The notes under the pieces were generated by a model that did no database searches, was not told the origin of the DNA, and saw nothing but the letters and a program-made list of their open reading frames with translations. Shown piece by piece: positions 1,194-52,364 of a DNA stretch of 52,677 bases (the first letter of the stretch is position 1; each line of letters starts with the position of its first letter). A program made the position numbers and the translations under genes. Source of the DNA: a virus (lineage: Duplodnaviria; Caudoviricetes); IMG/VR virus record IMGVR_UViG_3300010157_000085, positions 1 to 52,677 of that record. The stretch is one strand, 5' to 3'.

Positions 1194-3509
1194 TTAGTAA
1201 TTACCAGTTAGAGTCATATAAACTTGGGGAGACCAGTCTAGCACATTAAAACTAGTGTTAAATAATTGGCCTGATGGAGTCACTGCATAAGTGGGAAGTC
1301 CACTTGCTTGAGAGTCAACATAGATGCAGCAACCGTTTGCTGCAGGACCAGTAGTAGTACCAGGATCAAAATTAGGTACAAGAGGGTCAATCCCAGTAAG
1401 CGCAGCTACTCGTAGGTTTGTTGAAGTAGTTGAAGAGCCTATAAGGTACATTGCCATCCAATAGACTCCAGGGGTAGAGATTTCAATTGGGTCTGGACAA
1501 GTAACACTCTTATTAAGAGTGGTATTATTAGAGGTAGTACCAGCATCGTATATTAGGTTTCCAGGTAGTCCAAGCCAGTCATAGTATAGTCCAAATCCTG
1601 TAGAACCCGCCGTAGCTGCTGCATTGCTTACACAAGTAAACTTTGTTATAGTGCAAGGTTCTACAATTTTTACTGGTATAAGATATGTAGTCAGTCCTCT
1701 TGGTGCTAAATACTGTGGGCTAAAACTACTTACATTTGATGTGGTGCTCCAAGTACCCAAGGGAGTTACACCGGTTTGGCCTAGCACCAGGGATTTAGTT
1801 GTAGTGCTACCATGGTTTCTAGTCATTCTAAAGTTGGCCATTGGGTATGTAGATAGACCAGACTTTATATTACTAGAAGATGAAGATATGAAGCTTCTTA
1901 ATGGTACACTCATACGAGTGTATGATTTACGTATCTCTTCGGCTATATAGATACCACCTAGTTCACTGGGGTGTATACCATCATTGGATCTAGCGAATCC
2001 ATAACCGTAAAGTAGATCTTGTATGTTGGCTACGATTATTGGCTGTGGAAACTCGCTGACTACACCACTGATTGCAGTATTCCATGCTTGTATACTGGCA
2101 TAATCACTAGATGATATACTGGCAATATTGGCTATGATTACAGGGTTTGGGAATGAACTCTCTATTTGCCAAGAATCAAAGTCCATTTGATTACTTGTAC
2201 TAACTGTACAAGTGAGTGTGTGCGGCCCAGTATAAATATTAGTGCTAGTTAGTCCAGTAATTCTAGCAACTTGCCCTACTCGTGGAGTATTACCACTATA
2301 ATTTAACCCGTACCCGCTAGCTGTGAATTGGTTGGTGGCTACTCCGTTGATTGTAAACGAGTTATTAAGACTGTCTTGTATTGTTACCGTACCACCAACA
2401 TTCGTTCCACCACCAATGAAGTTGAGCGCTACGGGCCCCCCATCGTAGTCACTGGGGAGCGTAATAGAAAAGATGTTTCCGTTGGTAAATGACTTATAAC
2501 TAGTTCCCGTATTTATTTGAATTTGAGTGTTTCCACTTACGGTTATTCCATCACCAGTTGTTGTCTTTGATACTGTAGAAGCTCTAAAACGAGAGATTGT
2601 AGTGCGTAGAGCGTCAATAAAGGGTGGCAACCAAACAGTGCCTGCCCATGCAGAACTTAAAGCATTAGTATTTACTACAAGTCCAGGTTGACTAGTATTT
2701 AATATAGTAAAACTAGAAGTAGAGAGTATGGTGTCAATAGTGTAGGAACCATCATAGTTTCCTATTAGATTGTTGGGAGAGCTAAGTATAACTCTTTGCC
2801 CAGCTTGTAGTGATAGAGCTTTGGTAAGAGTAACAGTCCAGTATGCACCATTAGTTGTAATGCTAGAGATAGACCCGCTACCCATCATATCATTGATGCC
2901 CCACATACCAATACATAGACCATTATCGTTAGTGTATGGAGCGCGCGCTCTACTCGGAGTAAGCGCTCTAAGTATACTGACCCACCCGCCAATACCGTTG
3001 CTAACTGAATTAAAACTAAGGTCATACTGTAGTACAGTGCCAGCAACTCCAAGATAGTTGACATTACCAGAATCAAAACCTAGTGCACTTACAATATGGC
3101 TATATGTGGACTGATCAGTGTTGTAGTAACCACCATTGGTTGATGTAGTGGAGTCTTTGTAACCTGAAAAATTGTCAGTATATGAGTGCCCACCGATAGT
3201 AAGTTTTTGTATATTAACTTGACCGGGAAAATAACCAATACCAGTACTAGAAGACGGCATTGCAACTATTGATTCACCCTCATTCCCTACAGGCAGTCGT
3301 GCTTGAGTCGTAGAGAATGTGTATACATCACCCTTAGTAGTAAGCGGTGATATTGTTCCAGGTGTTCCACTAATGCCCTGGTAACCTTGAGGGCCTTGGT
3401 ATCCTTGTGGTCCTTGAGCACCCTGATAGCCTTGTACTCCTATGATTGCAGGTACCCATGCACCTGCACCACCACTTGCTGTAGCGTCCCAAACATTTGC
3501 TATTGGCAT
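1194..3509 (-). CDS. Tail fibre/spike-like protein with short collagen-like repeat and SGNH/GDSL hydrolase-like domain
   Basis: GxQ repeat; TTKGD..RLPVG fibre motif; SGNH blocks GGHSY, WGIND, DGIHP. Start placed at ATG 3509 (GGAG SD); ORF track start is 3521. Confidence 0.7.
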   Translation of the reverse strand: MPIANVWDATASGGAGAWVPAIIGVQGYQGAQGPQGYQGPQGYQGISGTPGTISPLTTKGDVYTFSTTQARLPVGNEGESIVAMPSSSTGIGYFPGQVNIQKLTIGGHSYTDNFSGYKDSTTSTNGGYYNTDQSTYSHIVSALGFDSGNVNYLGVAGTVLQYDLSFNSVSNGIGGWVSILRALTPSRARAPYTNDNGLCIGMWGINDMMGSGSISSITTNGAYWTVTLTKALSLQAGQRVILSSPNNLIGNYDGSYTIDTILSTSSFTILNTSQPGLVVNTNALSSAWAGTVWLPPFIDALRTTISRFRASTVSKTTTGDGITVSGNTQIQINTGTSYKSFTNGNIFSITLPSDYDGGPVALNFIGGGTNVGGTVTIQDSLNNSFTINGVATNQFTASGYGLNYSGNTPRVGQVARITGLTSTNIYTGPHTLTCTVSTSNQMDFDSWQIESSFPNPVIIANIASISSSDYASIQAWNTAISGVVSEFPQPIIVANIQDLLYGYGFARSNDGIHPSELGGIYIAEEIRKSYTRMSVPLRSFISSSSSNIKSGLSTYPMANFRMTRNHGSTTTKSLVLGQTGVTPLGTWSTTSNVSSFSPQYLAPRGLTTYLIPVKIVEPCTITKFTCVSNAAATAGSTGFGLYYDWLGLPGNLIYDAGTTSNNTTLNKSVTCPDPIEISTPGVYWMAMYLIGSSTTSTNLRVAALTGIDPLVPNFDPGTTTGPAANGCCIYVDSQASGLPTYAVTPSGQLFNTSFNVLDWSPQVYMTLTGNY

Positions 3510-3552: not shown

Positions 3553-4818
3553 CTAGTTGATACCCACTGCACTTATTTGTATATTGTTAATCACCATATT
3601 ACCCGTAGTATTTTTGAGTATATCTAGATAGATCGTGACATTAGAGGTAGTACCAGGGTTGACAATCCAGCTGCCCGAAAATGCATATGTTTGACCACTG
3701 GGGACTACGGTAGTCAAGAATGGATTAGGCGGGAAGAATGGACCCCCACCTGTACTGCTAGTGGTCATTGTGTGAGTAATAATACTAGTAGTTGTAGGAG
3801 CAGTAGTGATATTAAAGTTCCAAGTAACTAGGTAGTTACTAAACCCACTTACTGCTATACTATTAACTATATTGGGTATTCCAAACCCACCAGAAGTACC
3901 ACCAGTTACTGTAACATTAGTCGGAACAGGAAGAGTGCCACTAAAGCCTAAGTTACTAATACCAGCTGATCCCTGTACACCCTGGTAGCCTTGAACACCA
4001 GATTGATATCCCTGATTACCCTGATTTCCTTGCGACCCCTGTGGGCCTATAAAGCTTTGAGTGGTAGCACTGGTGTTAACCCAAATAGATGAGGTGGGGA
4101 CCCCAGATGAAGTTGAAGAGTAGACAACTCCCTGATTACCTTGGGTACCTTGCCTACCCTGTGAGCCCTGAAAACCCTGGTAGCCCTGAGTTCCTTGGTA
4201 GCCCTGGTATCCTTGGAATCCCTGAGTTCCTTGGTAACCTTGGTAGCCTTGATACCCCTGGTTGCCCTGGTAGCCCTGGGAACCAATAACGCCTTGGTAA
4301 CCTTGAAAACCTTGGAAACCTTGGTTTCCCTGGTAGCCTTGTGACCCTTGAACACTTGATTGATAACCTTGTGAACCCTGGTAACCCTGACTGCCCTGAT
4401 AGCCAGATGGGATACCAAAGTAAAGCAGTGCATTACCCGGGCTACCAGAATTGTTTACGTAGGCTTGGGATCCTGGCGGTAGGGTAGCTGTACTGATTAC
4501 GGATAGACCACCTTGTGGGCCTTGGTTCCCTTGAGCACCGGCTGCAGTGCCTTGAGGGCCTTGGGCTCCTACCACGGCACTTACCCAAGTACCTATGGTT
4601 AGAGGTGTGCTAGTGGTTATACCTGCAGCATTTGCGACTATGAATGAATTGGGATTTACTACACTAGCAACCGTAGTGTTAACATTAGAATTATAGTTAA
4701 TAACTGACATGCCCTGGACTACAGCAACTGTACCAGGAAAAGTTATAGTAGTACCACTAACTGTTAGTGGAGTAGTGGGGCTACCGGTTGTTGGTTGGAA
4801 GTATTTGAGTTGTGTCAT
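3553..4818 (-). CDS. Collagen-like (Gly-X-Gln) tail fibre protein
   Basis: Long GYQ/GFQ/GSQ/GNQ runs; C-terminal domain paralogous to that of 4818..7520. Confidence 0.8.
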   Translation of the reverse strand: MTQLKYFQPTTGSPTTPLTVSGTTITFPGTVAVVQGMSVINYNSNVNTTVASVVNPNSFIVANAAGITTSTPLTIGTWVSAVVGAQGPQGTAAGAQGNQGPQGGLSVISTATLPPGSQAYVNNSGSPGNALLYFGIPSGYQGSQGYQGSQGYQSSVQGSQGYQGNQGFQGFQGYQGVIGSQGYQGNQGYQGYQGYQGTQGFQGYQGYQGTQGYQGFQGSQGRQGTQGNQGVVYSSTSSGVPTSSIWVNTSATTQSFIGPQGSQGNQGNQGYQSGVQGYQGVQGSAGISNLGFSGTLPVPTNVTVTGGTSGGFGIPNIVNSIAVSGFSNYLVTWNFNITTAPTTTSIITHTMTTSSTGGGPFFPPNPFLTTVVPSGQTYAFSGSWIVNPGTTSNVTIYLDILKNTTGNMVINNIQISAVGIN

Positions 4819-29054: not shown

Positions 29055-29133
29055 TGGTCCGGGGAACAGGAATTGAACCTGTGACCACGAAGATATAAGC
29101 TTCGCTGCCGCAACCAACGCAGCACCTCTCCGG
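29055..29133 (-). tRNA. trnI: tRNA-Ile (anticodon TAT), atypical D-arm
   Basis: Manual cloverleaf: acceptor CCGGAGA/TCCCCGG (one A:C), anticodon stem CGAAG/CTTCG with loop CT-TAT-AT, T-arm ACAGG-TTCAATT-CCTGT, A73, encoded CCA. Confidence 0.75.
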
Positions 29134-29227: not shown

Positions 29228-29230
29228 AGG

Positions 29231-29303
29231 CTCCCTAGCCTGGACTCGAACCAGGAACCAGCTGATTAACAGTCAGCTGCTCTGCCAATTGAGCTACCAG
29301 GGA
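29231..29303 (-). tRNA. trnN: tRNA-Asn (GTT)
   Basis: TCCCTGG TAGCTCAATTGGCAGAGCA GCTGA-CTGTTAA-TCAGC TGGTT CCTGG-TTCGAGT-CCAGG CTAGGGA G; canonical; CCA not encoded. Confidence 0.95.
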
Positions 29304-32751: not shown

Positions 32752-32983
32752 TTTTTAATGCTATTCTACCAAGCTCTTGTAGGTATTGTTCTACTGTTAG
32801 GCCACTGCTATCTGACAACCGGCCAAGAACACCCAGCAAAACACCTGTTATGGCACTGAACAGCTCAATTGGGTCTGACTCAAGTACCATTTCATAAGCA
32901 ATCTCTTCTTGATTGCTTAGAACGGCTGTTAGTAGTGCAACAATCTTAGAAATATTTGCTGCGGTTGAATCCATCGATTTCAT
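32741..32983 (-). CDS. Hypothetical protein
   Basis: ATGA overlap with dps stop gives start 32983. Confidence 0.65.
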   Translation of the reverse strand: MKSMDSTAANISKIVALLTAVLSNQEEIAYEMVLESDPIELFSAITGVLLGVLGRLSDSSGLTVEQYLQELGRIALKNEY

Positions 32984-33507
32984 CCTGTCGATGCCTCTAG
33001 GAACCATTGCCATTTCTGATGTGAATCAATTCTTTCAGCGATAAAGTTTGCTACACCCTGTTCATTATCAGAGTTTGCTTTATCAAACACTCGTTTTAGT
33101 TCATTAATAATAGTTTTGTTCAAACTACCAAGTGTTGCTGCTAGTGCAACAGCATTATCTGTTTTGATGTCATTATCTGGCAGTGTTGATTGCTTGAACA
33201 GCTCAGACATTCTGTATGCAGATTTTGCTCCAAGCTTACGGATGTTTTCTGCTATTGGATCAATGCTATTATATACGTCTTCAACAATCTCATCAAAGAA
33301 CTTGTGATACTGATAAAAATCAGCACCTGTTACATTCCAGTGAGCTTCATGAACAATATGATAAAAAGATGATACATCTGCTAGCAGCTGTTGTAATAAA
33401 GCTGGCAATGATGTGCTACCAGAATGTTCTGGCTGTTCTGTTTCTACCGCTCCAACAAATCTAAATTTTGTTAGGCTAGCAACATTGAGGTTATCAAGTT
33501 CTGACAT
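32980..33507 (-). CDS. dps: Dps-family (mini-ferritin) DNA protection protein
   Basis: HEAHWNVTG.DF...HKFFDE......D..AE.IR.LG and H.K..WFL ferroxidase signature. Confidence 0.9.
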   Translation of the reverse strand: MSELDNLNVASLTKFRFVGAVETEQPEHSGSTSLPALLQQLLADVSSFYHIVHEAHWNVTGADFYQYHKFFDEIVEDVYNSIDPIAENIRKLGAKSAYRMSELFKQSTLPDNDIKTDNAVALAATLGSLNKTIINELKRVFDKANSDNEQGVANFIAERIDSHQKWQWFLEASTG

Positions 33508-37838: not shown

Positions 37839-38237
37839 CTAATTATCCCAGTTTATGATTGGAGGGGCTGTACTTGTTGATTTTTCCTCTGGCCAACCGT
37901 ATAGTTCTGGATGTGCTCCACGCTCTTCATCCAGCTGTTGCAATTCTTCTATTGAATCTGTGTGATGCTTAACACGTTTTTTAAATGTATTGAAATGGTT
38001 TAGATACTCTGGACGCCTGGCCTTGCCATTTTTAAAATCGCACATCTGACCACTAACCCTTCTGCCCCTATCAGCTATTTCAAGCATGGTTTTATGGGAT
38101 GCAACGCTGTCAGAGTCATGTTTTACCAGATTGTCGCGATATTCTCCATCAATAATTTCTGCCTGGTTTGAGCCAGGGGTGGTATAGCTAGAGACCCTTG
38201 GAGTTTTGCTCTCAGCGTATCTGACGGCCCAGTTCAT
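37839..38237 (-). CDS. Hypothetical protein
   Basis: 132 aa, leader MNWAVRYA. Confidence 0.7.
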   Translation of the reverse strand: MNWAVRYAESKTPRVSSYTTPGSNQAEIIDGEYRDNLVKHDSDSVASHKTMLEIADRGRRVSGQMCDFKNGKARRPEYLNHFNTFKKRVKHHTDSIEELQQLDEERGAHPELYGWPEEKSTSTAPPIINWDN

Positions 38238-38584
38238 TTGACCGACAGGTATTGCTCAGGATGCAAGAGCTCTATTTTATCTTGCATGGTACTTGCAGCA
38301 TCAGAAAGCGCTATAGCTCTACCAGAGTACAAGATTGCGTCATCATTACCAGTTTTATGAGCTGTCGCAGCTGTTGAGTGAGCAGCAATAGCTTTGCCAT
38401 GAAGTTTTTCAGCGATGGCAACCAGATCATGTAAGGGATGACTGGGATGCAGGCCATCAATTGCTTGAACGTTCCTGGCAATTGCTCGTCCATGAGCATA
38501 TGTGCTCTGAGTATGACCGATTTCCGGTGAACCGTTAGAGTAATCATCACTAGAGTAGCGAAAATTCCAGTTTTTACTAGTCAT
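38234..38584 (-). CDS. Hypothetical His/Ala-rich helical protein
   Basis: Leader MTSKNWNFRYS; alternative GTG start 38590. Confidence 0.7.
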   Translation of the reverse strand: MTSKNWNFRYSSDDYSNGSPEIGHTQSTYAHGRAIARNVQAIDGLHPSHPLHDLVAIAEKLHGKAIAAHSTAATAHKTGNDDAILYSGRAIALSDAASTMQDKIELLHPEQYLSVK

Positions 38585-38592
38585 ACTCACTC

Positions 38593-43554: not shown

Positions 43555-43582
43555 GCATCACTCACTCTACGGAGTGGGTGGT
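43555..43582 (+). repeat. 28-nt intergenic repeat/hairpin copy 1 (C-UACG-G tetraloop)
   Basis: GCATCACTCACTCTACGGAGTGGGTGGT, identical at 43858..43885. Confidence 0.88.
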
Positions 43583-43610
43583 ATCTACGCCTTGAAAGGA
43601 GGTGATAACA

Positions 43611-43857: not shown

Positions 43858-43885
43858 GCATCACTCACTCTACGGAGTGGGTGGT
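43858..43885 (+). repeat. 28-nt intergenic repeat/hairpin copy 2
   Basis: Identical to 43555..43582. Confidence 0.88.
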
Positions 43886-43978
43886 GTAGGGGTCACAGGC
43901 TAACTCCCCCCCCAAGGTCTGTGGCTCCTACACCATCCACACTGGATGGTAACTACACCACGAAAGGAGGTGAATAAC

Positions 43979-44305
43979 ATGCAGAACCAATCCAACAGCA
44001 ACTCTGAGGAGATGACTGATCAGGAGCTGGCCGACGCCATGGCGACGTCGTTCAATCCTGACATGGCCAAGGCTGAGTTCAAGGCCAAGCCCAAGGCAAG
44101 AGCTAAGGGTAAGCGCAAGCGCGCAAGCACCATCAGTGATGATGAGCTATTCGCTCGGATCCTTGACGACCTGCACCGTCAGTCCGTTGTCAAGCAGGGC
44201 AAGGCCAAGCTCAAGCAGCACACTGATGCTACTGCTCGGTACACAGATGTACCACGTACCAACAACAGCATGGCTGCTGCTTTACGCAAGGCTGGCATCA
44301 AGTAG
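43979..44305 (+). CDS. Hypothetical basic protein
   Basis: GAAAGGAGGTG SD; Lys-rich; ends NNSMAAALRKAGIK. Confidence 0.78.
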   Translation: MQNQSNSNSEEMTDQELADAMATSFNPDMAKAEFKAKPKARAKGKRKRASTISDDELFARILDDLHRQSVVKQGKAKLKQHTDATARYTDVPRTNNSMAAALRKAGIK

Positions 44306-44398
44306 TGCCACCCATCCATATCCGTAGTGGAGTAGCTAGAGACCTAGCACCGGGGTACTCCACCCCTGCAGTATCCATCTAGTCCCTGAGGAGGGAAC

Positions 44399-44854
44399 AT
44401 GCAGAAGTTGCCGTTCGAAGTTAAGGATCTGAATGAGGGCATGCAATTGTACATGCTGGGGTTTAACCACAGCAAGGATGGGTACAGAGACATGGCTGTG
44501 AGCCACAATCGTAGCTATCTCATGGCTCTAGCCCAGCAGGAGAATGACCATCCAATCAAGTGGGTGTGTGATGCCAGTGGTGACAACTGGAAGGGCTGGA
44601 GCGAGTATCACTCTGAGTTCTACATCGATGTGGTCAGTGAAACCGATGTGAAGAACTATGGCTACATCAAGCTCACCTGGCACAAGGTACACATCCTTGA
44701 GGAGTATCTGGGCATGGATGAGGACACCTACGCTCCCATCATTGGTCACAAGCCAGGCATTGAGCTCAAGAGTGTGTGGGCAAAGCCTAGTGGCATCTCC
44801 AATGTGATCTCTGGTCCATGTTGGGATGCAGATCTTCTCTACAACTCGCTGTAA
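44399..44854 (+). CDS. Hypothetical protein
   Basis: GAGGAGG SD, 151 aa. Confidence 0.75.
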   Translation: MQKLPFEVKDLNEGMQLYMLGFNHSKDGYRDMAVSHNRSYLMALAQQENDHPIKWVCDASGDNWKGWSEYHSEFYIDVVSETDVKNYGYIKLTWHKVHILEEYLGMDEDTYAPIIGHKPGIELKSVWAKPSGISNVISGPCWDADLLYNSL

Positions 44855-45033
44855 GTACTAGCTGATCATGGGCTCAGTCCGTGGTCAGTCATGTGCGTAT
44901 AGCACACAGTTCTCCCTACTCATTGAAGAGCTGGGAGTTGCAGCAACCGAATGCTGGGAAGCATGCGGTGCAGTACCGCCACACTTGTGGCATTGGCGCA
45001 TCAGCAGTCTGATGCACGATCAGGAGTCATACA

Positions 45034-45882
45034 TTGACGAACGGTCAGCCTACGGGCACCCAGAACGGAAGCACGATTGCTTCCACTGACTCGGCAGCCA
45101 CCGAGAACAACACCGCAGCTGAGGCTATGATTGCAGATGCAATCGCAGCAGCGACGTGGGTCCGTGAGCACCTCGGAGAGATGCCACGCTCAGTCAGAGT
45201 CAGCCGTGTGCCGATTGACACAGTTGAGCTCTTTGCCACAGCAGGCATTGACTTCAACCGGGTGCTCCGCGACAGCATCAGTGCTGTCAACGGTATCGCA
45301 GTCGGTGAGGTGTACGAGCTGATCGACCACGATCTGCTGTCGTACTCACGGTCAGTTGCAGAACGCATGACTCGTGTCAAGCAGCTGCCAGCCGATGCGA
45401 CTGTGGGTGCGAGCTTCGCATACCGCAAGTCGTACCTCAAGCAGCGTCAGCTTGTCAAGGTTGTTGACAGCCTGCAGACCAACTCCAAGGGCGATCAGTA
45501 CTACGTGGTCCACACGGGTACTCTCGACCCAGAGCGTCCGCTTGACGAGCCAGTCTGGCGTACCCAAGAGATGGTTGCCAAGCAGGCTGTTGAGATGCGT
45601 CTCTACCTGCTTGAGACCCCCAAGGGTACTGCACTCTGGCGCTGGCACAACGGCAACAAGCAACCAGTTGGTCTGGGCAGCAGCAAGGTGTTTGCTGACA
45701 AGATCATGGACTGCCTGGAGAGCGAGCAGTACAAGCAGCTGCAACTGCTCGGTGCCAGCAGCCCTGAGCTCAAGGAAGACGACATCTGTCGCTTCCACGA
45801 GGGTCAGCTTGTGTTCTGGAAGGCTACCCACCTTGCAGTGCATGCAACGCAGGCTCTCAAGCCAGCACCATCAGCTAGCTAA
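45034..45882 (+). CDS. Hypothetical protein
   Basis: 282 aa, strong GC3 codon bias, AGGAG SD before TTG; alternative ATG 45128. Confidence 0.75.
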   Translation: MTNGQPTGTQNGSTIASTDSAATENNTAAEAMIADAIAAATWVREHLGEMPRSVRVSRVPIDTVELFATAGIDFNRVLRDSISAVNGIAVGEVYELIDHDLLSYSRSVAERMTRVKQLPADATVGASFAYRKSYLKQRQLVKVVDSLQTNSKGDQYYVVHTGTLDPERPLDEPVWRTQEMVAKQAVEMRLYLLETPKGTALWRWHNGNKQPVGLGSSKVFADKIMDCLESEQYKQLQLLGASSPELKEDDICRFHEGQLVFWKATHLAVHATQALKPAPSAS

Positions 45883-45977
45883 TCACTAGCACTGTTTCCC
45901 TGTATCACTAACAACAGGGTCCAGCTGGCATACCTGGGTCAACAGTATGCCACCCATCTATCCCTTAAGGAGGGGCC

Positions 45978-46415
45978 ATGAAGTATCCGTTTGACAGCAT
46001 GCCAGACTCAGCACAGATAGTTGAATACTATCGTGGGCTGCACTGTCCTCGCTACATCCCAGAGGATGAGAACACACTCTGGCGCAGTGAGGACAACAGT
46101 CAATACCTGTACATCGAGGTAGATACCTATGTTGACTGGGACCTGACGAACATTGCCATGCTGGACGTGCGCATCGACGACGGCAACAGTGAGATGCGTC
46201 ATAAGTTATACATTCAGAGTGGCTGCTACGAAAGAGCCTGGGAACAGTGCCAGATCACCATACCATTCTTTTGTGAGCACGGGTGCACAACAGGTCCCTG
46301 TGCTCATGAAGGACAGCGGATGCAGTTGATGGCCGCTGAGTACCGCTGGTTTGTCAGCATGATTGAGAAGCATGCTCTACCAGTTCCTACAACCAACATC
46401 CCAGAGGAGGGATAG
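45978..46415 (+). CDS. Hypothetical protein
   Basis: AAGGAGG SD, 145 aa. Confidence 0.75.
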   Translation: MKYPFDSMPDSAQIVEYYRGLHCPRYIPEDENTLWRSEDNSQYLYIEVDTYVDWDLTNIAMLDVRIDDGNSEMRHKLYIQSGCYERAWEQCQITIPFFCEHGCTTGPCAHEGQRMQLMAAEYRWFVSMIEKHALPVPTTNIPEEG

Positions 46416-46417
46416 CC

Positions 46418-46561
46418 ATGCTGATATTCAGCAAGTGTAAGCATTGCGGGCAGAGCATCTGCAACCGTGATGAGGTCAATTGGATCCATCTCACACCACA
46501 ACTACGTTACTGTAGTCGGAATGGTGTGGCACTGGACACCGTGGCAGAGCCGGTGGTCTAG
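46418..46561 (+). CDS. Small Zn-finger-like protein (47 aa)
   Basis: Not in ORF track; MLIFSKCKHCGQSI...WIH...YC; GAGGAGG SD. Confidence 0.6.
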   Translation: MLIFSKCKHCGQSICNRDEVNWIHLTPQLRYCSRNGVALDTVAEPVV

Positions 46562-46563
46562 AG

Positions 46564-46755
46564 ATGAAACCAATTAAGTTAGTTTGTAGATACTGTCACA
46601 AACAGATAGAGAATGACGTGGACGTACCACTCCTGTGGACTCATACTGCCACCAGTGATCCATTCTGTGGTAAAGATAACTTATCTACATTCCACCTGGC
46701 AGACTACCAGGGCACACTTAGCTACGAACAGATCATTGAAAGGATGAGCCGATGA
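46564..46755 (+). CDS. Small Zn-finger-like protein
   Basis: CRYCHKQI...WTH...FC; same pattern as the upstream ORF. Confidence 0.65.
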   Translation: MKPIKLVCRYCHKQIENDVDVPLLWTHTATSDPFCGKDNLSTFHLADYQGTLSYEQIIERMSR

Positions 46756-46985
46756 ATGTTTCACGTGAAACAATTGAAGGCCAGATAACAATCTGTAACC
46801 TGCTGGTTAACCAGATCGCAGGCATGTTCATACCCCTGCGAGAGACCTGTGAGAAACACACCTCAGAGTGGTGGGAGTATCAGGAGATGATTGATCGCAA
46901 CATGAAGATGATTCGAAAGTGTCAGGAATCTATCAAACATCTACAGGAAAATGTTTCACGTGAAACATCGGAGCCTGCGGATTAA
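46752..46985 (+). CDS. Hypothetical protein carrying two parS sites in frame (NVSRET x2)
   Basis: ATGA overlap with the upstream gene. Confidence 0.6.
   Translation: MNVSRETIEGQITICNLLVNQIAGMFIPLRETCEKHTSEWWEYQEMIDRNMKMIRKCQESIKHLQENVSRETSEPAD
46757..46772. promoter_or_regulatory. parS: parS centromere-like site (ParB loading)
   Basis: Perfect palindrome TGTTTCACGTGAAACA, matching the bacterial chromosomal parS consensus. Confidence 0.85.
46952..46967. promoter_or_regulatory. parS: parS centromere-like site (ParB loading)
   Basis: Second perfect TGTTTCACGTGAAACA, 195 bp from the first. Confidence 0.85.
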
Positions 46986-47173
46986 GTTAATCGGGTCCTT
47001 GTTTATTACACAAACAAGTCCAAGGTTCTGGCTAGCTGTTATAAGTTAGCCTCATATATGTCTAGTGATTAACTATCACTGGATGCAACAAGGATCTAAC
47101 TGCAAGATGCGGTTGGATCATTGACCCCTGTGGATCGTCCACTCGGTCATCACTCAAACCCCTGGAGGTTATC

Positions 47174-47707
47174 GTGAGTGCTAGTAAGCGTAGTACCTGG
47201 AGCAGCAACGCTAGTTCCAATTCACAACAGGTTGAGATCCCCGTGTGGAATCTCATGGCTGACTGCTGGTCAGGTTATACCGCGCATGCTCTTGAGTATG
47301 TTCGTGCCGGTCGACCTGTTCACTACGGTCAGGGTCGTATCCATATCCACTGGGGTATCTTGTGGGCTTCCCGCCCAAGTTTATTCCAGCTGGAGGTAGT
47401 CACCAGTGCTCGTGGATCCAATGACTGGACTCCTGGCAGATTCAACTTTGCCAGTGTTGATAGCTGTCCGCCACTGGATGAGCTTGGCATCGTTCAGCAG
47501 CAAAAGATAGTCACTGGTCTCGTGGAACTGTACACCCTGCAGTGGGATCTTATCGATGAAAGCACTGAGAGTGGTGAGTGGGTTGCTGACACTCATGCTC
47601 TGCGCGATGGCACCAGTGAGCGTCGTGAGTGTCCCGCGCACAAGATCACTCGCTCTCTTGCTCACCTGTTCGAGACCAACAAGCTTGACAGGCAGGTACT
47701 CTCATGA
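47174..47707 (+). CDS. Hypothetical protein
   Basis: GGAGG SD before GTG. Confidence 0.7.
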   Translation: MSASKRSTWSSNASSNSQQVEIPVWNLMADCWSGYTAHALEYVRAGRPVHYGQGRIHIHWGILWASRPSLFQLEVVTSARGSNDWTPGRFNFASVDSCPPLDELGIVQQQKIVTGLVELYTLQWDLIDESTESGEWVADTHALRDGTSERRECPAHKITRSLAHLFETNKLDRQVLS

Positions 47708-48162
47708 ATGAATCCAGCGGTTACAGCATCGGTATGTTTGTCAAGGATCGTATCCGTGCCCGGTTCGAAGTGGGTGAACTGGTACTCCTTGGCAAGTGGC
47801 GAGAGGAACTCTGCATGGTGATGGGTTATAAATACACATTCACCAGTGAGATCGGAACCACCAAAGAATTATCTGTTGGTGATGCCTATGAGAATGCCCG
47901 TATCGATCAAGGTGCTATCGAGTATCGGATTGCAAGCCTGAATGATCCTAGCAGAGGTCTCTTCTATCTCAATAGCAATCCGTTACGTGGCTTGTGCACC
48001 TGCCATCAGATTGAACTGCCGGAGGGCTGGACTGACTTTCGTCACTGCCCTGTCTGTGGTGATGTGATCACCCGCCATGTTCCCAACCTGCTGATCAAGT
48101 GCGAGAAGGCTATTAAATACTGGCGCGCTAACCCTGAAGACTGGTGGAGGTGCAGACCATGA
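47704..48162 (+). CDS. Hypothetical protein with Zn ribbon
   Basis: CTCH...HCPVCG; ATGA overlap. Confidence 0.7.
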   Translation: MNESSGYSIGMFVKDRIRARFEVGELVLLGKWREELCMVMGYKYTFTSEIGTTKELSVGDAYENARIDQGAIEYRIASLNDPSRGLFYLNSNPLRGLCTCHQIELPEGWTDFRHCPVCGDVITRHVPNLLIKCEKAIKYWRANPEDWWRCRP

Positions 48163-48443
48163 AGCGTTTCAAGAGCTGGTTGGTTGATGAGATTGATAGT
48201 ATCAGTTGTGCCTTGCGCAACAGATTCAACCGTCGCAAGCATCATGCCTGGCAACAGGGATATGATGCCGGTTATCTGCAGCACGAGCACGACACCGATC
48301 CACAGACAGCCATTGATCGCATGGTGTTGTACGGCAGGCCTGGGGTGGGAAAGAACTTACAACCACCCACAGATCTACCAACAGAACTGGTCTGGAAGCT
48401 TGAGCTTCCTGACTCCGATCAACAACAAGGAGAACAACAGTGA
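48159..48443 (+). CDS. Hypothetical protein
   Basis: GGAGG SD before ATG 48159. Confidence 0.65.
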   Translation: MKRFKSWLVDEIDSISCALRNRFNRRKHHAWQQGYDAGYLQHEHDTDPQTAIDRMVLYGRPGVGKNLQPPTDLPTELVWKLELPDSDQQQGEQQ

Positions 48444-48832
48444 ATACTGTACATGTTATCACACTGAATGATCAGTTGCATGAGACTGAAGGTCATTTCA
48501 TTGCTGTCACTGACAGCCTGCAGTCAGCTCTTGAATGGATGCGCGCCCAGTTTCAAGGCGAACCATACAAGCAGGTATGGGATACCGGTCATGACTACAC
48601 CAGCTGCTGGATGCCTGATCTGGGATGGGAGTACGTGATCAACGAGCGCCCAGTGTATGATTTCAACACTGCCAGCATGCATCCCCTGCTGGATTACGAG
48701 AACAGACTGGAGCGTGGCACCTACACTCGCCACCTGGTCAACCTGGTGAAAAGTAATCAATTGAAGCGCAAGCGATTGGTTACTGCACCCGGTGGTAGAA
48801 ACAACCGATCCAACCAAGGAGAACAGCCATGA
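48440..48832 (+). CDS. Hypothetical protein
   Basis: AAGGAG SD, GTGA overlap. Confidence 0.7.
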   Translation: MNTVHVITLNDQLHETEGHFIAVTDSLQSALEWMRAQFQGEPYKQVWDTGHDYTSCWMPDLGWEYVINERPVYDFNTASMHPLLDYENRLERGTYTRHLVNLVKSNQLKRKRLVTAPGGRNNRSNQGEQP

Positions 48833-49296
48833 ACCATTCAACATGCAGCGTGTGTGAGCAGCCGGTAGAGCTCATGACAGATGATCCATACCATGTGGAC
48901 ACCGGCTTGCAGATCACAATCAACACCGGATACGGTATGTTCGCTGACGGTGATGCACTGGACCTGATCACCTGTCACTCCTGCAGCATTCGCTTGCTGG
49001 AATTGTTCCCCGAAGGTGTACGCAATCACTACCGTGGCGGTCATGACCACGACTACCCGGGTGCTATCTGTCAGGGTTGTGAGTACAATGAACCTGTGGT
49101 AATCCCTTCGGAGTTCTCACTAGAAGAACTCTGGCAGGAAGCCGATAAGCTCATGCAGACAATGGACATCCCCGAGCAACGGCGCAGGGATCACCGCTGG
49201 ATCGCACGTAATGCTCATGCCAATAACCGTGAGAACCCCGATCTACTTGCACTATGCATGCTGCTGGTAGAGATCAATGAACTGGAGAAACCATGA
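48829..49296 (+). CDS. Hypothetical Cys-rich protein
   Basis: CSVC, GYGMF.D, CHSC; AAGGAG SD. Confidence 0.7.
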   Translation: MNHSTCSVCEQPVELMTDDPYHVDTGLQITINTGYGMFADGDALDLITCHSCSIRLLELFPEGVRNHYRGGHDHDYPGAICQGCEYNEPVVIPSEFSLEELWQEADKLMQTMDIPEQRRRDHRWIARNAHANNRENPDLLALCMLLVEINELEKP

Positions 49297-49604
49297 CAGA
49301 ACAAACAGACACCCGCAAGCTACCAGTAGAACTAGGACAGGTGGTGATCACCAGCAACCTGTACAACCAGCTGGAAGCTGCTCACACACCTGCTGAGATC
49401 CTGCGAGAGATCGCAAGCCTTATCCTTCGTCATCAGCGGGGTGACTGGGGTGACGTTCACCCAGAGGATACTGGTGCTAACGATCAAGCACTAGAAGATG
49501 GCACACGCTTGTTGAGTGTGTATCCCTTGTTCGATTTTAAAGTGTGGATCATCACTGAAGCCGATCGAGGTGTGACCACTGTGCTCTTACCCGAAGACTA
49601 CTAG
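49293..49604 (+). CDS. Conserved mobile-element hypothetical protein (GDWG...WIITEADR family)
   Basis: RH..GDWGDV..ED...N..AL..G.RLLS.Y...VWIITEADR..TTVLLPEDY. Confidence 0.75.
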   Translation: MTEQTDTRKLPVELGQVVITSNLYNQLEAAHTPAEILREIASLILRHQRGDWGDVHPEDTGANDQALEDGTRLLSVYPLFDFKVWIITEADRGVTTVLLPEDY

Positions 49605-49617
49605 CGAGGAAACAGCA

Positions 49618-49917
49618 ATGATCAAAGAAGATCCAAGCCCAGACCCACGGGGCGGCACAAGGAAAAAGGGTACAAGGAATGTGGCTACCCTGGAAAAGAT
49701 CAAGCAGCTGCATGAGAATCCGGGTGAATGGTTTGTCTGGTGTACAACCACGGGCAGAGGAGTGCAGAGCTCGCTCAAGTATGCTCTGCTGGGTAAAGCA
49801 CGAGGCGAGTCACTGGACTGGCAGAATGCTCCCTATGAGATAACCAGTCGTTCTCAACCCGGTGGGCTTCACCGGGTTTACGTTCGCTACCTGCCAGAAA
49901 AGGAGCAACACTCATAA
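49618..49917 (+). CDS. Hypothetical protein (possible DNA-binding)
   Basis: NPGEW...VYVRY pattern; GAGG SD. Confidence 0.7.
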   Translation: MIKEDPSPDPRGGTRKKGTRNVATLEKIKQLHENPGEWFVWCTTTGRGVQSSLKYALLGKARGESLDWQNAPYEITSRSQPGGLHRVYVRYLPEKEQHS

Positions 49918-50070
49918 ACCAACACTGGTCCAAACGCATGCCTGTGTGATGAATTGCCTGCTTGGCGCGTGGGCTGCGCGTATCTGATTGAATGACCGCC
50001 GAAAAATTTTTTACTGTCCTGGTTAGCTTACTAGCCTGGGCAGTAATCAATCCATACAAGGAGCAATAAC

Positions 50071-50406
50071 ATGAACAACAATGAAACCCTCTGCTACACA
50101 GAGTACTACGATTGCCAGTGTCACGGTCACGTACTGACTGTTGATATTGAAGCATATGACAATGAGTTCTATGTGTCACTGGTGATGTACGAGCAGAGCT
50201 ACCGAGATGCTGGACGCTTGACCCGTGCCTGGCGTGCCCTGCGTGGTAAGGATCAGCTTGTGAGCGATGTTGTGCTTGATTCTATGAGTTCAGCAAAGCT
50301 TGCCAATCAAATCCAGGAAGCCTTGCGCATTGCTAACAGCAAGAAAGACCTGACCGGTGAAGGTTTGGCCTACATCCACAGCTACCCCGACATTGAACCA
50401 ATCTAG
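50071..50406 (+). CDS. Hypothetical protein, paralog of 51154..51462
   Basis: CQCHGH and RLTRAWRALRG; AAGGAG SD. Confidence 0.72.
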   Translation: MNNNETLCYTEYYDCQCHGHVLTVDIEAYDNEFYVSLVMYEQSYRDAGRLTRAWRALRGKDQLVSDVVLDSMSSAKLANQIQEALRIANSKKDLTGEGLAYIHSYPDIEPI

Positions 50407-50414
50407 GAGGCATC

Positions 50415-50624
50415 ATGCCAACTCAAGACTACAAGACTCCTAAGCTACTAGCGCTTTGGGATCAGATGCAAGCTACATTCAAAGAAATCTTCTTTGAAAT
50501 GAAAGCAATCAATGATGCAAAAGAAGCTGATGGCATTGCAACCAGTGATGCTGGTGCAATACCTGATTGGTTCTATCAAATCTGTCATCACGTTGCTGCA
50601 ACAAACCCCAAGGAGGAATTATGA
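50415..50624 (+). CDS. Hypothetical protein
   Basis: AGGAGG SD; IPDWFYQIC resembles the C-terminus of 51464..51973 (VPEWFASMC). Confidence 0.7.
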   Translation: MPTQDYKTPKLLALWDQMQATFKEIFFEMKAINDAKEADGIATSDAGAIPDWFYQICHHVAATNPKEEL

Positions 50625-51139
50625 GTGACACGTTGACCCCCGAAGAGCTGGCTATTGTAGAACAGCTCACTGCTGACATGGATGCTGCATCCAAAGCATG
50701 GGATGAGGCTCGGTTTAAGTTACCAGAGTATTCAGCCATGCAAGCAGCATCAGCAGCTTTAAAGGCTGCCTCAAAAGATCCTCGCACAGAATTGATCACA
50801 CGCATGCGCAAGCAGGTTCAAGAGTGGTTGAATGAGTATGAGAGTCTTACCGATGATCTTGATTATGATCCTGATGATGATGATGATGAAGATGCTTGGT
50901 ATTCTGACAACTACCAAGATAACTTTGACAGCATGGAAGAAGCTGTGGCTGATCTTGAAGCAATCATTGAAGAGAGCCACCCTCTTGCAAAGGAATTCAA
51001 CAAGGCAAGAATTGCATTCTTCGATGCTGAACGAGCACTCCCAGAGTACGAGCTGTACAATGAGGCAACAGACGCCTGGTCAGATAGACCTGGTGCGCCG
51101 TACGGTTTCGGATCACGCAATGGTTGCGTAATACCTTAA
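50621..51139 (+). CDS. Hypothetical acidic helical protein
   Basis: AAGGAGG SD before ATG 50621; LPEY x2, poly-Asp. Confidence 0.72.
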   Translation: MSDTLTPEELAIVEQLTADMDAASKAWDEARFKLPEYSAMQAASAALKAASKDPRTELITRMRKQVQEWLNEYESLTDDLDYDPDDDDDEDAWYSDNYQDNFDSMEEAVADLEAIIEESHPLAKEFNKARIAFFDAERALPEYELYNEATDAWSDRPGAPYGFGSRNGCVIP

Positions 51140-51153
51140 GAAAGGACAGTAAC

Positions 51154-51462
51154 ATGAGTAAGAAAAACCTTGCCAGGCTTGGTACTACCACTGTGGTTGA
51201 ATGCCACTGTGGTTGCCACTTCTACAAGTTCACCTTGTATGATACCGGATATGATGAGGACAACCCTGAACTGATCATTGATTTCCTTGAGCCGAATGAC
51301 GGTAAGATCAGGGGCAGAATCGGATGGGCATGGCGTATCCTGCGCCGTGGCTATTACGGCAAGGCAAGTATTGAACTCACACTGGAAGACCGTGATCTTC
51401 TTGTTGAGCACTTGCAAAACCCAGTAACCTGGGGTGAAAACTTCTACGAGAAGGAGCAGTAA
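51154..51462 (+). CDS. Hypothetical protein, paralog of 50071..50406
   Basis: CHCGCH and RIGWAWRILRRG; AAAGGA SD. Confidence 0.72.
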   Translation: MSKKNLARLGTTTVVECHCGCHFYKFTLYDTGYDEDNPELIIDFLEPNDGKIRGRIGWAWRILRRGYYGKASIELTLEDRDLLVEHLQNPVTWGENFYEKEQ

Positions 51463-51463
51463 G

Positions 51464-51973
51464 ATGAAAGCAGTAATCATTCGTGCCGATGACTCACGTG
51501 AACTGGTTGAGTTCACCCGTGAGACCGAGTATGAAACAATCAGTGGTGCAGTCGATGGTTACATCGAGCGTATCCCTCTTCCCAGCCGTGGTGCTGACAT
51601 GTGGGTGAACGAGGAAGGCAAGCTCAAACACCTGCCACTCAACCACGGTGCCACTCGGTTGTGGGAAGAGAACTACGGCTGCACCGATTACACAGCTGGT
51701 GATGCCATTGTCACTGGTGCTGCTGATGGTGAAGGCTACATGACTGGTCTGTCTGATACACAGATTGAACAGTTGATGCCAGCTGCACCGGCAGTTGAAC
51801 TGCCAGAGGATGAATACATTCACCCGGACCTAGAACCACTTTGGAATGATGTTCTTCAAGCAGTACAACGTGTGCTGCAGGAAAGCGCCAAGCTTGAACC
51901 TGAAGAGTTCATTGTACCCGAATGGTTCGCAAGCATGTGTGAAGTGATCTTATCAAAGAAAGAGGAGGGCTAG
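51464..51973 (+). CDS. DUF3846-domain protein
   Basis: MKAVII...AVDGYIE...MWVNEEGKL..LPLN..AT...AGDAIVTG. Confidence 0.75.
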   Translation: MKAVIIRADDSRELVEFTRETEYETISGAVDGYIERIPLPSRGADMWVNEEGKLKHLPLNHGATRLWEENYGCTDYTAGDAIVTGAADGEGYMTGLSDTQIEQLMPAAPAVELPEDEYIHPDLEPLWNDVLQAVQRVLQESAKLEPEEFIVPEWFASMCEVILSKKEEG

Positions 51974-51977
51974 TCAG

Positions 51978-52364
51978 ATGACTATCCAATCAATCAGTAC
52001 CCGGTATGCATACACTACCCTGATGTATCAGGACAGTGAACTGCCTATCTACCGTAGCTACACCACGGATGACCTGCTGCTTTCAGTGGCAGGTCGTTAT
52101 TGTTCAGACCGTGACAAGTCACTCAGTCTGATTCAGCCTAACCTGTACGGTTGGCGAGAGAACACCCGCACCATCTGTCTTCAGCCTGAGGACACAAACA
52201 TTGAGCGAATGGTTGAGATCATTCACCTGGTGTCTGATGAGATCGAATCGGTTACCGTGCTTGACAACAACTCACTGCGTGAAGTATTCGTTGTGATCAA
52301 CAAGGTTGAGGCCACGCCTGAAAATGAGATCGAGATCTACATCATGGAGAGAGAGGAAGACTAA
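51978..52364 (+). CDS. Hypothetical protein
   Basis: GAGGAGG SD, 128 aa. Confidence 0.7.
   Translation: MTIQSISTRYAYTTLMYQDSELPIYRSYTTDDLLLSVAGRYCSDRDKSLSLIQPNLYGWRENTRTICLQPEDTNIERMVEIIHLVSDEIESVTVLDNNSLREVFVVINKVEATPENEIEIYIMEREED

Follow-up and report, generated by a model that had tools for sequence, protein, structure and literature searches.

Why would a phage of lytic appearance carry perfect copies of a bacterial chromosomal centromere site at both ends of one small early gene, and which protein would read them? The question arises from a linear stretch of 52,677 bp (hereafter the window), which is a complete IMG/VR record with a CheckV completeness of 36%; at that completeness, what is missing from the window is not necessarily missing from the phage. 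The phage is a Bixzunavirus-like myovirus with a genome of roughly 125-145 kb, 64% of which lies outside the record, and the runs containing the sequence are labelled freshwater metagenomes. Table 1 presents an overview of the features discussed.

Table 1. Positions of features in the window and, where named, in related records
Feature	Position	Strand	Description
Structural block	648-42563	-	major head protein, portal, cement protein, collagen-like tail fibres
tRNA-Ile(TAT)	29055-29133	-	within minus-strand block
tRNA-Asn(GTT)	29229-29303	-	within minus-strand block
Ferritin-like domain protein	32980-33507	-	Pfam PF00210, E 4.8e-18
NW(N/A)xRY(A/S) proteins, window	37839-38237, 38234-38590	-	shared N-terminal motif
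NW(N/A)xRY(A/S) proteins, L249 (G040)	1417-1836, 2027-2371	-	shared N-terminal motif
Early block	from 43946	+	small ORFs without known families
Upstream anchor gene	45034..45882	+	282 aa, no assigned function
Upstream CxxC ORF, first	46418-46561	+	47 aa
Upstream CxxC ORF, second	46564-46755	+	63 aa, weak zf-BED match; directly before ORF77
ORF77	46752..46985	+	77 aa, small early gene
parS-1	46757..46772	.	exact TGTTTCACGTGAAACA; codons 2-7 of ORF77, read N-VSRET
parS-2	46952..46967	.	exact TGTTTCACGTGAAACA; codons 67-72 of ORF77, read N-VSRET
Conserved non-coding element	46982..47087	+	between parS cassette and 177-aa gene; two hairpins
Downstream anchor gene	47174..47707	+	177 aa, no assigned function
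ParB_N/Srx-like stand-alone protein	L249 1417-1836 = G040:73719-74138	-	139 aa, DGHHR motif
Long portal matches	loci L199-L202, L206, L207, L209, L215, L218-L222, L224-L229		in relatives

The phage, the sites and the gene that holds them

The portal protein offers the best guide to the affiliation of the phage. It is 40.7% identical to that of the cluster C mycobacteriophages (Bixzunavirus), and 223 of its 227 tblastn matches are, judged by record name, phages of Mycobacterium, Mycolicibacterium, Gordonia or Rhodococcus. This similarity to actinophages hints, indirectly, at an actinobacterial host range. The phage looks lytic, given that integrase, repressor and partition genes are all missing among the 70 ORFs of the window. 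By megablast the region gave no match to cultured phages, and the genes neighboring the 77-aa ORF with the two sites (ORF77), each used alone as query, retrieved no IMG/VR relatives; the portal query did retrieve them. The ferritin-like gene was considered as a host marker and proved uninformative: its closest genome match is 35% identical, on a Haliscomenobacter MAG contig, and there is only one other match, at 28%, also on a Bacteroidota MAG contig.

The divergent region that separates the structural block from the early block contains two sets of repeats. One is an exact 28-nt direct repeat (43555-43582 and 43858-43885), and the other a 31-nt repeat, 84% identical, that ends in GAAAGGAGGTGA (43575-43605 and 43943-43973). 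Both are candidate early promoter or operator elements, or duplicated leader sequences. Elsewhere, in the window as well as in the relative G040, adjacent and otherwise unrelated small proteins have the N-terminal motif NW(N/A)xRY(A/S) in common, which may be a targeting or processing signal.

An earlier note on this DNA had placed two exact copies of the 16-mer TGTTTCACGTGAAACA in one shared frame of ORF77, and both were re-found at the coordinates that it gave (Table 1). Each agrees with the consensus TGTTNCACGTGAAACA at 16 of 16 positions, this being the 16-bp palindrome of chromosomal-type parS, the centromere site of ParB/Spo0J; the consensus matched is the general chromosomal one. From the base composition of the window, 1.5e-5 exact sites would be expected by chance. 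The two that are present lie within 211 bp, and with up to three mismatches allowed no third parS was found in the 52,677 bp. The direct repeat around the sites extends to 18 nt (AATGTTTCACGTGAAACA, starting at 46755 and 46950, a spacing of 195 nt start to start), and it belongs to no larger repeat family. DnaA boxes are not enriched (9 observed, 15 expected), and scans for promoters and terminators returned background levels.

Both sites are intact in variant contigs, of which some differ from the window at 46949 and 46970 and others have 6 nt inserted just upstream of parS-2. Since these contigs are near-identical (6 differences in 453 nt), they have little power to test selection. The read-depth peaks seen at both sites derive from unrelated contigs that have just the 16-mer in common with the window. 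An abundant contig from a freshwater metagenome, unrelated to the phage (run X4 record 15, 3,270 nt, depth 54.8), contains the 16-mer twice, about 172 nt apart.

By its sequence, ORF77 is a real gene. Its start codon overlaps the stop codon of the preceding ORF (ATGA), and its product runs from MNVSRET to ENVSRETSEPAD, the peptide ending in NVSRETSEPAD. Two protein searches recovered five homologs (P0002-P0006), with P0003 encoded on a 118-kb contig, and the family is defined by the conserved core FIPLRE..KHT.EWW.YQEMIDRNMK.IR.CQ. AlphaFold2 models ORF77 as a single long helix over residues 5-73 with a mean pLDDT of 86.4, so the product is predicted to be coiled-coil-like. No Pfam or PHROG family was matched, and DNA relatives of the ORF77 locus were not found in viral contigs or metagenome contigs. 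A tblastn match of ORF77 to Ruegeria phages at E 0.08 was dismissed as noise.

Both peptide ends of ORF77 vary within this family. While VSRET is present at the N-terminus of five of the six members, only three carry NVSRETSE at the C-terminus. P0004 stops short of the C-terminal position, P0006 reads VSRLP there, and P0005 has STSTM and VSPDT in place of both motifs. Since P0005 and P0006 nevertheless keep the core, the protein can do without the motifs. The best explanation, tentative when taken as a whole, is that ORF77 tolerates parS at its dispensable ends and is a separate gene rather than the reason for the sites.

Recurrence of the sites in relatives and in other viral records

To place the sites in an evolutionary context, 77 IMG/VR records retrieved by the portal protein, at 54-91% identity, served as relatives. 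The 50 larger ones comprise 3.19 Mb, in which 9e-4 perfect sites would be expected. Twelve were found, all of them tightly clustered, in four records (four sites in G040, three each in G014 and G037, and two in G044), with cluster sizes of two to four sites within 52-635 bp. Two further records, G031 and G032, have one site each with one mismatch. The other 44 of the 50 are free of parS, including the complete G052, the 82-84% complete G016, G020 and G036, and G024 at 79%. The 27 short portal-centered relatives hold no parS, but their sequence stops before the locus. The clusters are therefore sporadic in the lineage, occurring in 4 of the 77 portal relatives, and their absence from most relatives, complete and near-complete genomes included, makes the trait dispensable. 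In many relatives the portal match itself extends over about 2.8-3.5 kb of DNA rather than about 2.3 kb; the extra length suggests that an intein, a homing element or another kind of insertion interrupts the gene.

Two of the four parS-bearing records, G040 (59% complete) and G014 (38% complete), allow the locus itself to be compared. Among the 50 larger relatives, the downstream 177-aa anchor gene has homologs in these two only (53% aa identity), and both lie beside parS clusters. Homologs of the upstream 282-aa gene are also found near the clusters (41% aa identity in G040, 36% in G014), with weaker ones in G024 and G049, both parS-free. In G014 and G040 the cluster sits between the two anchor genes, such that perfect sites recur at the syntenic locus in both of the relatives that have it.

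The gene enclosed by the sites is another matter. In G014 and G040 the ORF enclosed by two sites, which are 105 bp apart, is Cys-rich and 50-61 aa long, MNVSRET-SANWCDLCDHPVEWHVEPCTSWLCACVRT-NVSRETSEE; it is read in the same frame as ORF77 and has an unrelated interior. DNA matches between ORF77 and these two records are limited to nucleotides 1-26 and 197-222, with none in the interior. BLASTP gave no alignment between the Cys-rich ORF of G014 and the 63-aa CxxC ORF of the window, and hhalign assigned a probability of 8% to a relationship between the ORF77 family and the 70-aa ORF beside the G014 cassette. Around parS-1, the stretch of 26 nt that begins with the ATG recurs unchanged at a site in G040. 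That genome also has a stump of 12 codons, MNVSRETIEPHE*, which opens with the same 26 nt as ORF77, and this suggests an exchange or a deletion between sites.

What persists while the genes change is the palindrome. The serine codon directly after the distal site is TCG in the window, TCT in G040 and TCA in G014, and the residue preceding the distal site core is N or H, both encoded by codons ending in the T with which the site begins. Across the codon comparison of these three genomes, the site itself is the same at every base. NVSRET written with codons that break the palindrome, which the earlier note had named as the finding that would speak against selection on the DNA, occurs at none of the six ORF-embedded sites read as DNA (two each in the window, G014 and G040). 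G014 and G040 carry a further, non-coding site 15 nt upstream of a start codon, and those of G037 and G044 lie largely outside coding sequence. Since perfect sites surround another ORF and also occur in non-coding DNA, with the adjacent serine codon varying, selection acts on the palindrome itself, whichever gene holds it. On this comparison the parS sites are conserved as DNA beyond coding need, and the pattern offers a clear case from nature of selection on a protein-binding site within a coding sequence, the site staying perfect while the surrounding and intervening genes turn over.

Conservation at the DNA level is also seen downstream of the cassette. The non-coding element matches G040 over 107 nt and G014 over 80 nt, in both cases at about 90% identity, while the flanking proteins are just 36-53% identical. 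Both hairpins are conserved, with variation solely in the second loop, and are followed by TCATATATGTC. In G040 an extra gene precedes the element and the homolog of the 177-aa gene follows it immediately, an arrangement that ties the element to the downstream gene and not to parS. It may be a promoter or operator, a terminator or a small RNA. Rfam returned no credible match around the locus, the sole match being to mir-344 (19.1 bits against a gathering score of 52.5 bits, E 0.39).

Across IMG/VR as a whole, exact parS is present in at least 137 stretches. Among the matches listed, 29 of the 149 loci examined contain more than one site, GC content ranges from 28% to 72%, and 88 of 196 distinct sites lie outside any ORF of at least 70 aa; across the same 196 sites, A is favored at the two positions flanking the site. 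A pair of sites 170-190 nt apart occurs in 12 stretches from 11 records, and ParB_N was found in none of the 11, which include a complete 66.9-kb genome with direct terminal repeats. When 34 records of at least 14.6 kb were chosen from 80 rows among the matches listed, two had ParB_N, one of them above the cut-off, and 10 of the 11 parS records that are at least 90% complete lacked it; these counts refer to a single Pfam model, and IMG/VR may include misclassified plasmids. Several of the parS records are complete 15-17-kb genomes with inverted terminal repeats. The record G006 (17,037 bp; ends L008 and L013) has a perfect pair, 194 bp apart, in each inverted terminal repeat and no ParB_N. G074, G079, G090 and G094, complete at 15-16 kb with inverted terminal repeats, likewise have parS, and ParB_N was not found in them.

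Candidate binders and the use of the sites

By virtue of their sequence, the sites should be read by a ParB, and the question becomes whose. The absence of a recognizable parA or parB from the window, noted earlier from the letters alone, holds up in Pfam scans of its 70 ORFs (42 + 28), which contain no ParA, ParB, integrase or repressor, and in six-frame searches with ParB_N (PF02195) and HTH_ParB (PF17762) at E <= 1. The ORFs at 43946-52364 that flank parS have no ParA or ParB domains. ParB_N is above its family cut-off in none of the 50 larger relatives, the complete G052 among them, HTH_ParB is found in none of the four parS-bearing relatives, and both parS and ParB_N are absent from Cali and Tonenili, two relatives in culture. 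An exact host consensus with no canonical ParB makes the ParB of the host the most economical candidate, and it is probable that host ParB binds the sites, whatever the purpose.

The preferred reading goes one step further and is tentative, its chances lying a little short of even: the sites would be functional chromosomal-type parS, an orphan cluster that loads host ParB for the hitch-hiking or organization of phage DNA. The two 16-mers, kept by selection on DNA, would make up a small cluster, akin to a centromere, within the early region of a large lytic-type myovirus. After entry, host ParB would recognize the sites, load as CTP-dependent clamps and spread over the neighboring early genes. 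Treated from then on like origin-proximal host DNA, the phage genome could be picked up by ParA and/or SMC and, whenever lytic growth is delayed, reach daughter or resting cells, in the way that phi29 does through Spo0J.

The earlier note had proposed that the phage may recruit a ParB and SMC to position, compact or segregate its genome, or may titrate ParB away from the host origin. Its premise stands at the level of sequence, in that real parS sites kept for their DNA sequence occur in a phage without visible partition genes. The novelty that it implied was set too high, since lytic phi29 is known to carry five host-type parS sites used through Spo0J (PMC2731898).

If host ParB does load at the sites, a large lytic-type freshwater phage would be exploiting host chromosome segregation with none of the machinery encoded in its own DNA. 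The spore-entrapment paradigm of phi29 and Spo0J would then cover another phage family and, probably, hosts that form no spores. In such hosts, unreplicated phage genomes might be inherited through division as a carrier state or pseudolysogeny, or the organization of the host chromosome might be disturbed. The 211-bp fragment is a compact and directly testable reagent for these possibilities.

An unlikely variant of the preferred reading keeps host ParB as the binder and places the benefit in takeover or regulation. The cluster might act as a sink that draws ParB, and with it SMC loading, away from the host origin, or spreading might silence early genes in a manner that depends on host state. 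The location of the sites would suit such a role, as they lie within an early operon, with parS-1 overlapping codons 2-7 of ORF77 and a site in G014 and G040 close upstream of a start codon. So would the lytic appearance of the phage, and repression of parS-adjacent promoters by ParB has been reported for P. aeruginosa and S. pneumoniae. However, two sites per genome would make a weak sink early in infection, most relatives lack the trait, and the sole studied precedent, phi29, points to segregation (PMC2731898).

A binder encoded by the phage itself is a quite unlikely alternative. In this case a ParB- or KorB-type clamp, or a helix-turn-helix protein copying the host specificity, would be encoded in the other 64% of the genome and the system would be self-contained. 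The incompleteness of the record leaves room for it; with G040 and G014 also partial, a phage ParB could be elsewhere. One conceivable candidate is the stand-alone ParB_N/Srx-like protein of G040 (Table 1), encoded about 8 kb from the parS cluster, to which comparable sub-threshold ParB_N frames of 149 and 156 aa correspond in G012 (3670-3858) and, more weakly, G014. The G040 protein, however, falls below the Pfam and TIGR00180 cut-offs and has no HTH_ParB or other HTH, and it was not found in the window, where an unrelated gene occupies the syntenic slot. A dedicated phage ParB would also have to be reconciled with the lack of an above-threshold ParB_N in the 50 larger relatives, one of them complete, with the lack of both parS and ParB_N in Cali and Tonenili, and with a site that is the exact host consensus and no private variant of it.

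That the palindromes have no ParB role, being instead recombination junctions or relics for the swapping of small early genes, RNA hairpins or an NVSRET peptide motif, is highly unlikely: identical end sequences do enclose different ORFs in the window and in G014/G040, and the G040 stump does resemble an exchange or deletion, but a junction or hairpin needs no 16/16 identity to the ParB consensus, compensatory or single-base variation was not seen among 14 perfect sites in five genomes, some sites are non-coding, and homologs without the peptide motif retain the core. Recombination at the sites is moreover compatible with ParB binding and no substitute for it. Returning to host ParB, a broader proposal, possible and with the odds somewhat against it, combines the two: orphan host-type centromeres may be a widespread and largely undescribed phage strategy, and the 16-mer may have two uses here. 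It may be a landing pad for host ParB, letting the phage hitch-hike on the ParABS/SMC machinery of freshwater hosts that do not sporulate, for instance in delayed or carrier-state infections, and it may also be the junction at which cassettes are swapped.

Comparison with known systems

Centromere-like sites on phage genomes are familiar from self-contained partition cassettes. P1, N15 and the parABS prophages of actinobacteriophages each supply ParA and ParB themselves and rely on parS sequences private to the element; these prophages are presumably phages of the host range hinted at for the window phage. The present sites resemble those of such cassettes in being centromere-like and phage-borne. 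They differ in that neither parA nor parB was found near the sites or elsewhere in the window and in that their sequence is the general chromosomal consensus. In KorB-OB of RK2, palindromic docking sites are likewise written into the genes of a mobile element. There, tens of sites genome-wide serve an element-encoded clamp, whereas here a host-type site forms one tight cluster.

The ParABS clusters of Firmicutes, Actinobacteria and many other phyla present a closer likeness in the sites themselves. Chromosomal parS is an origin-proximal 16-bp palindrome, clustered and often located inside coding sequence, that loads ParB-CTP clamps recruiting ParA and SMC (PMC12704722, PMC10197239). The window has the same palindrome, also clustered and within coding sequence, but on a virus rather than beside oriC and with no cognate parAB nearby.

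The closest precedent in kind is provided by the virulent Bacillus phages phi29 and Nf, which combine several host-type chromosomal parS sites with a lytic lifestyle and no parAB, as the window phage appears to do within its 36% record. PMC2731898 reports five parS sites in phi29 and the involvement of Spo0J in segregating the phage genome into the prespore. A scan of the phi29 genome recovered four one-mismatch sites, TGTTCCACGTGAAACA, and one three-mismatch site, dispersed between 3.5 and 18.8 kb. Full-text searching of the literature found host-type parS in no phages other than phi29 and Nf. The differences are considerable. The 19-kb phi29 is a podovirus that replicates by protein priming and infects a spore former. 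The window phage is a large freshwater myovirus whose two perfect sites, spaced by 195 bp, occupy both ends of one small ORF, and partner sites of the Spo0A type are not known for it. What is new is the occurrence of phi29-like, apparently orphan host-type parS in a different phage family and habitat, and what is distinctive is the layout, a tight cluster that occupies the ends of small, interchangeable early genes and is confined to some members of the lineage.
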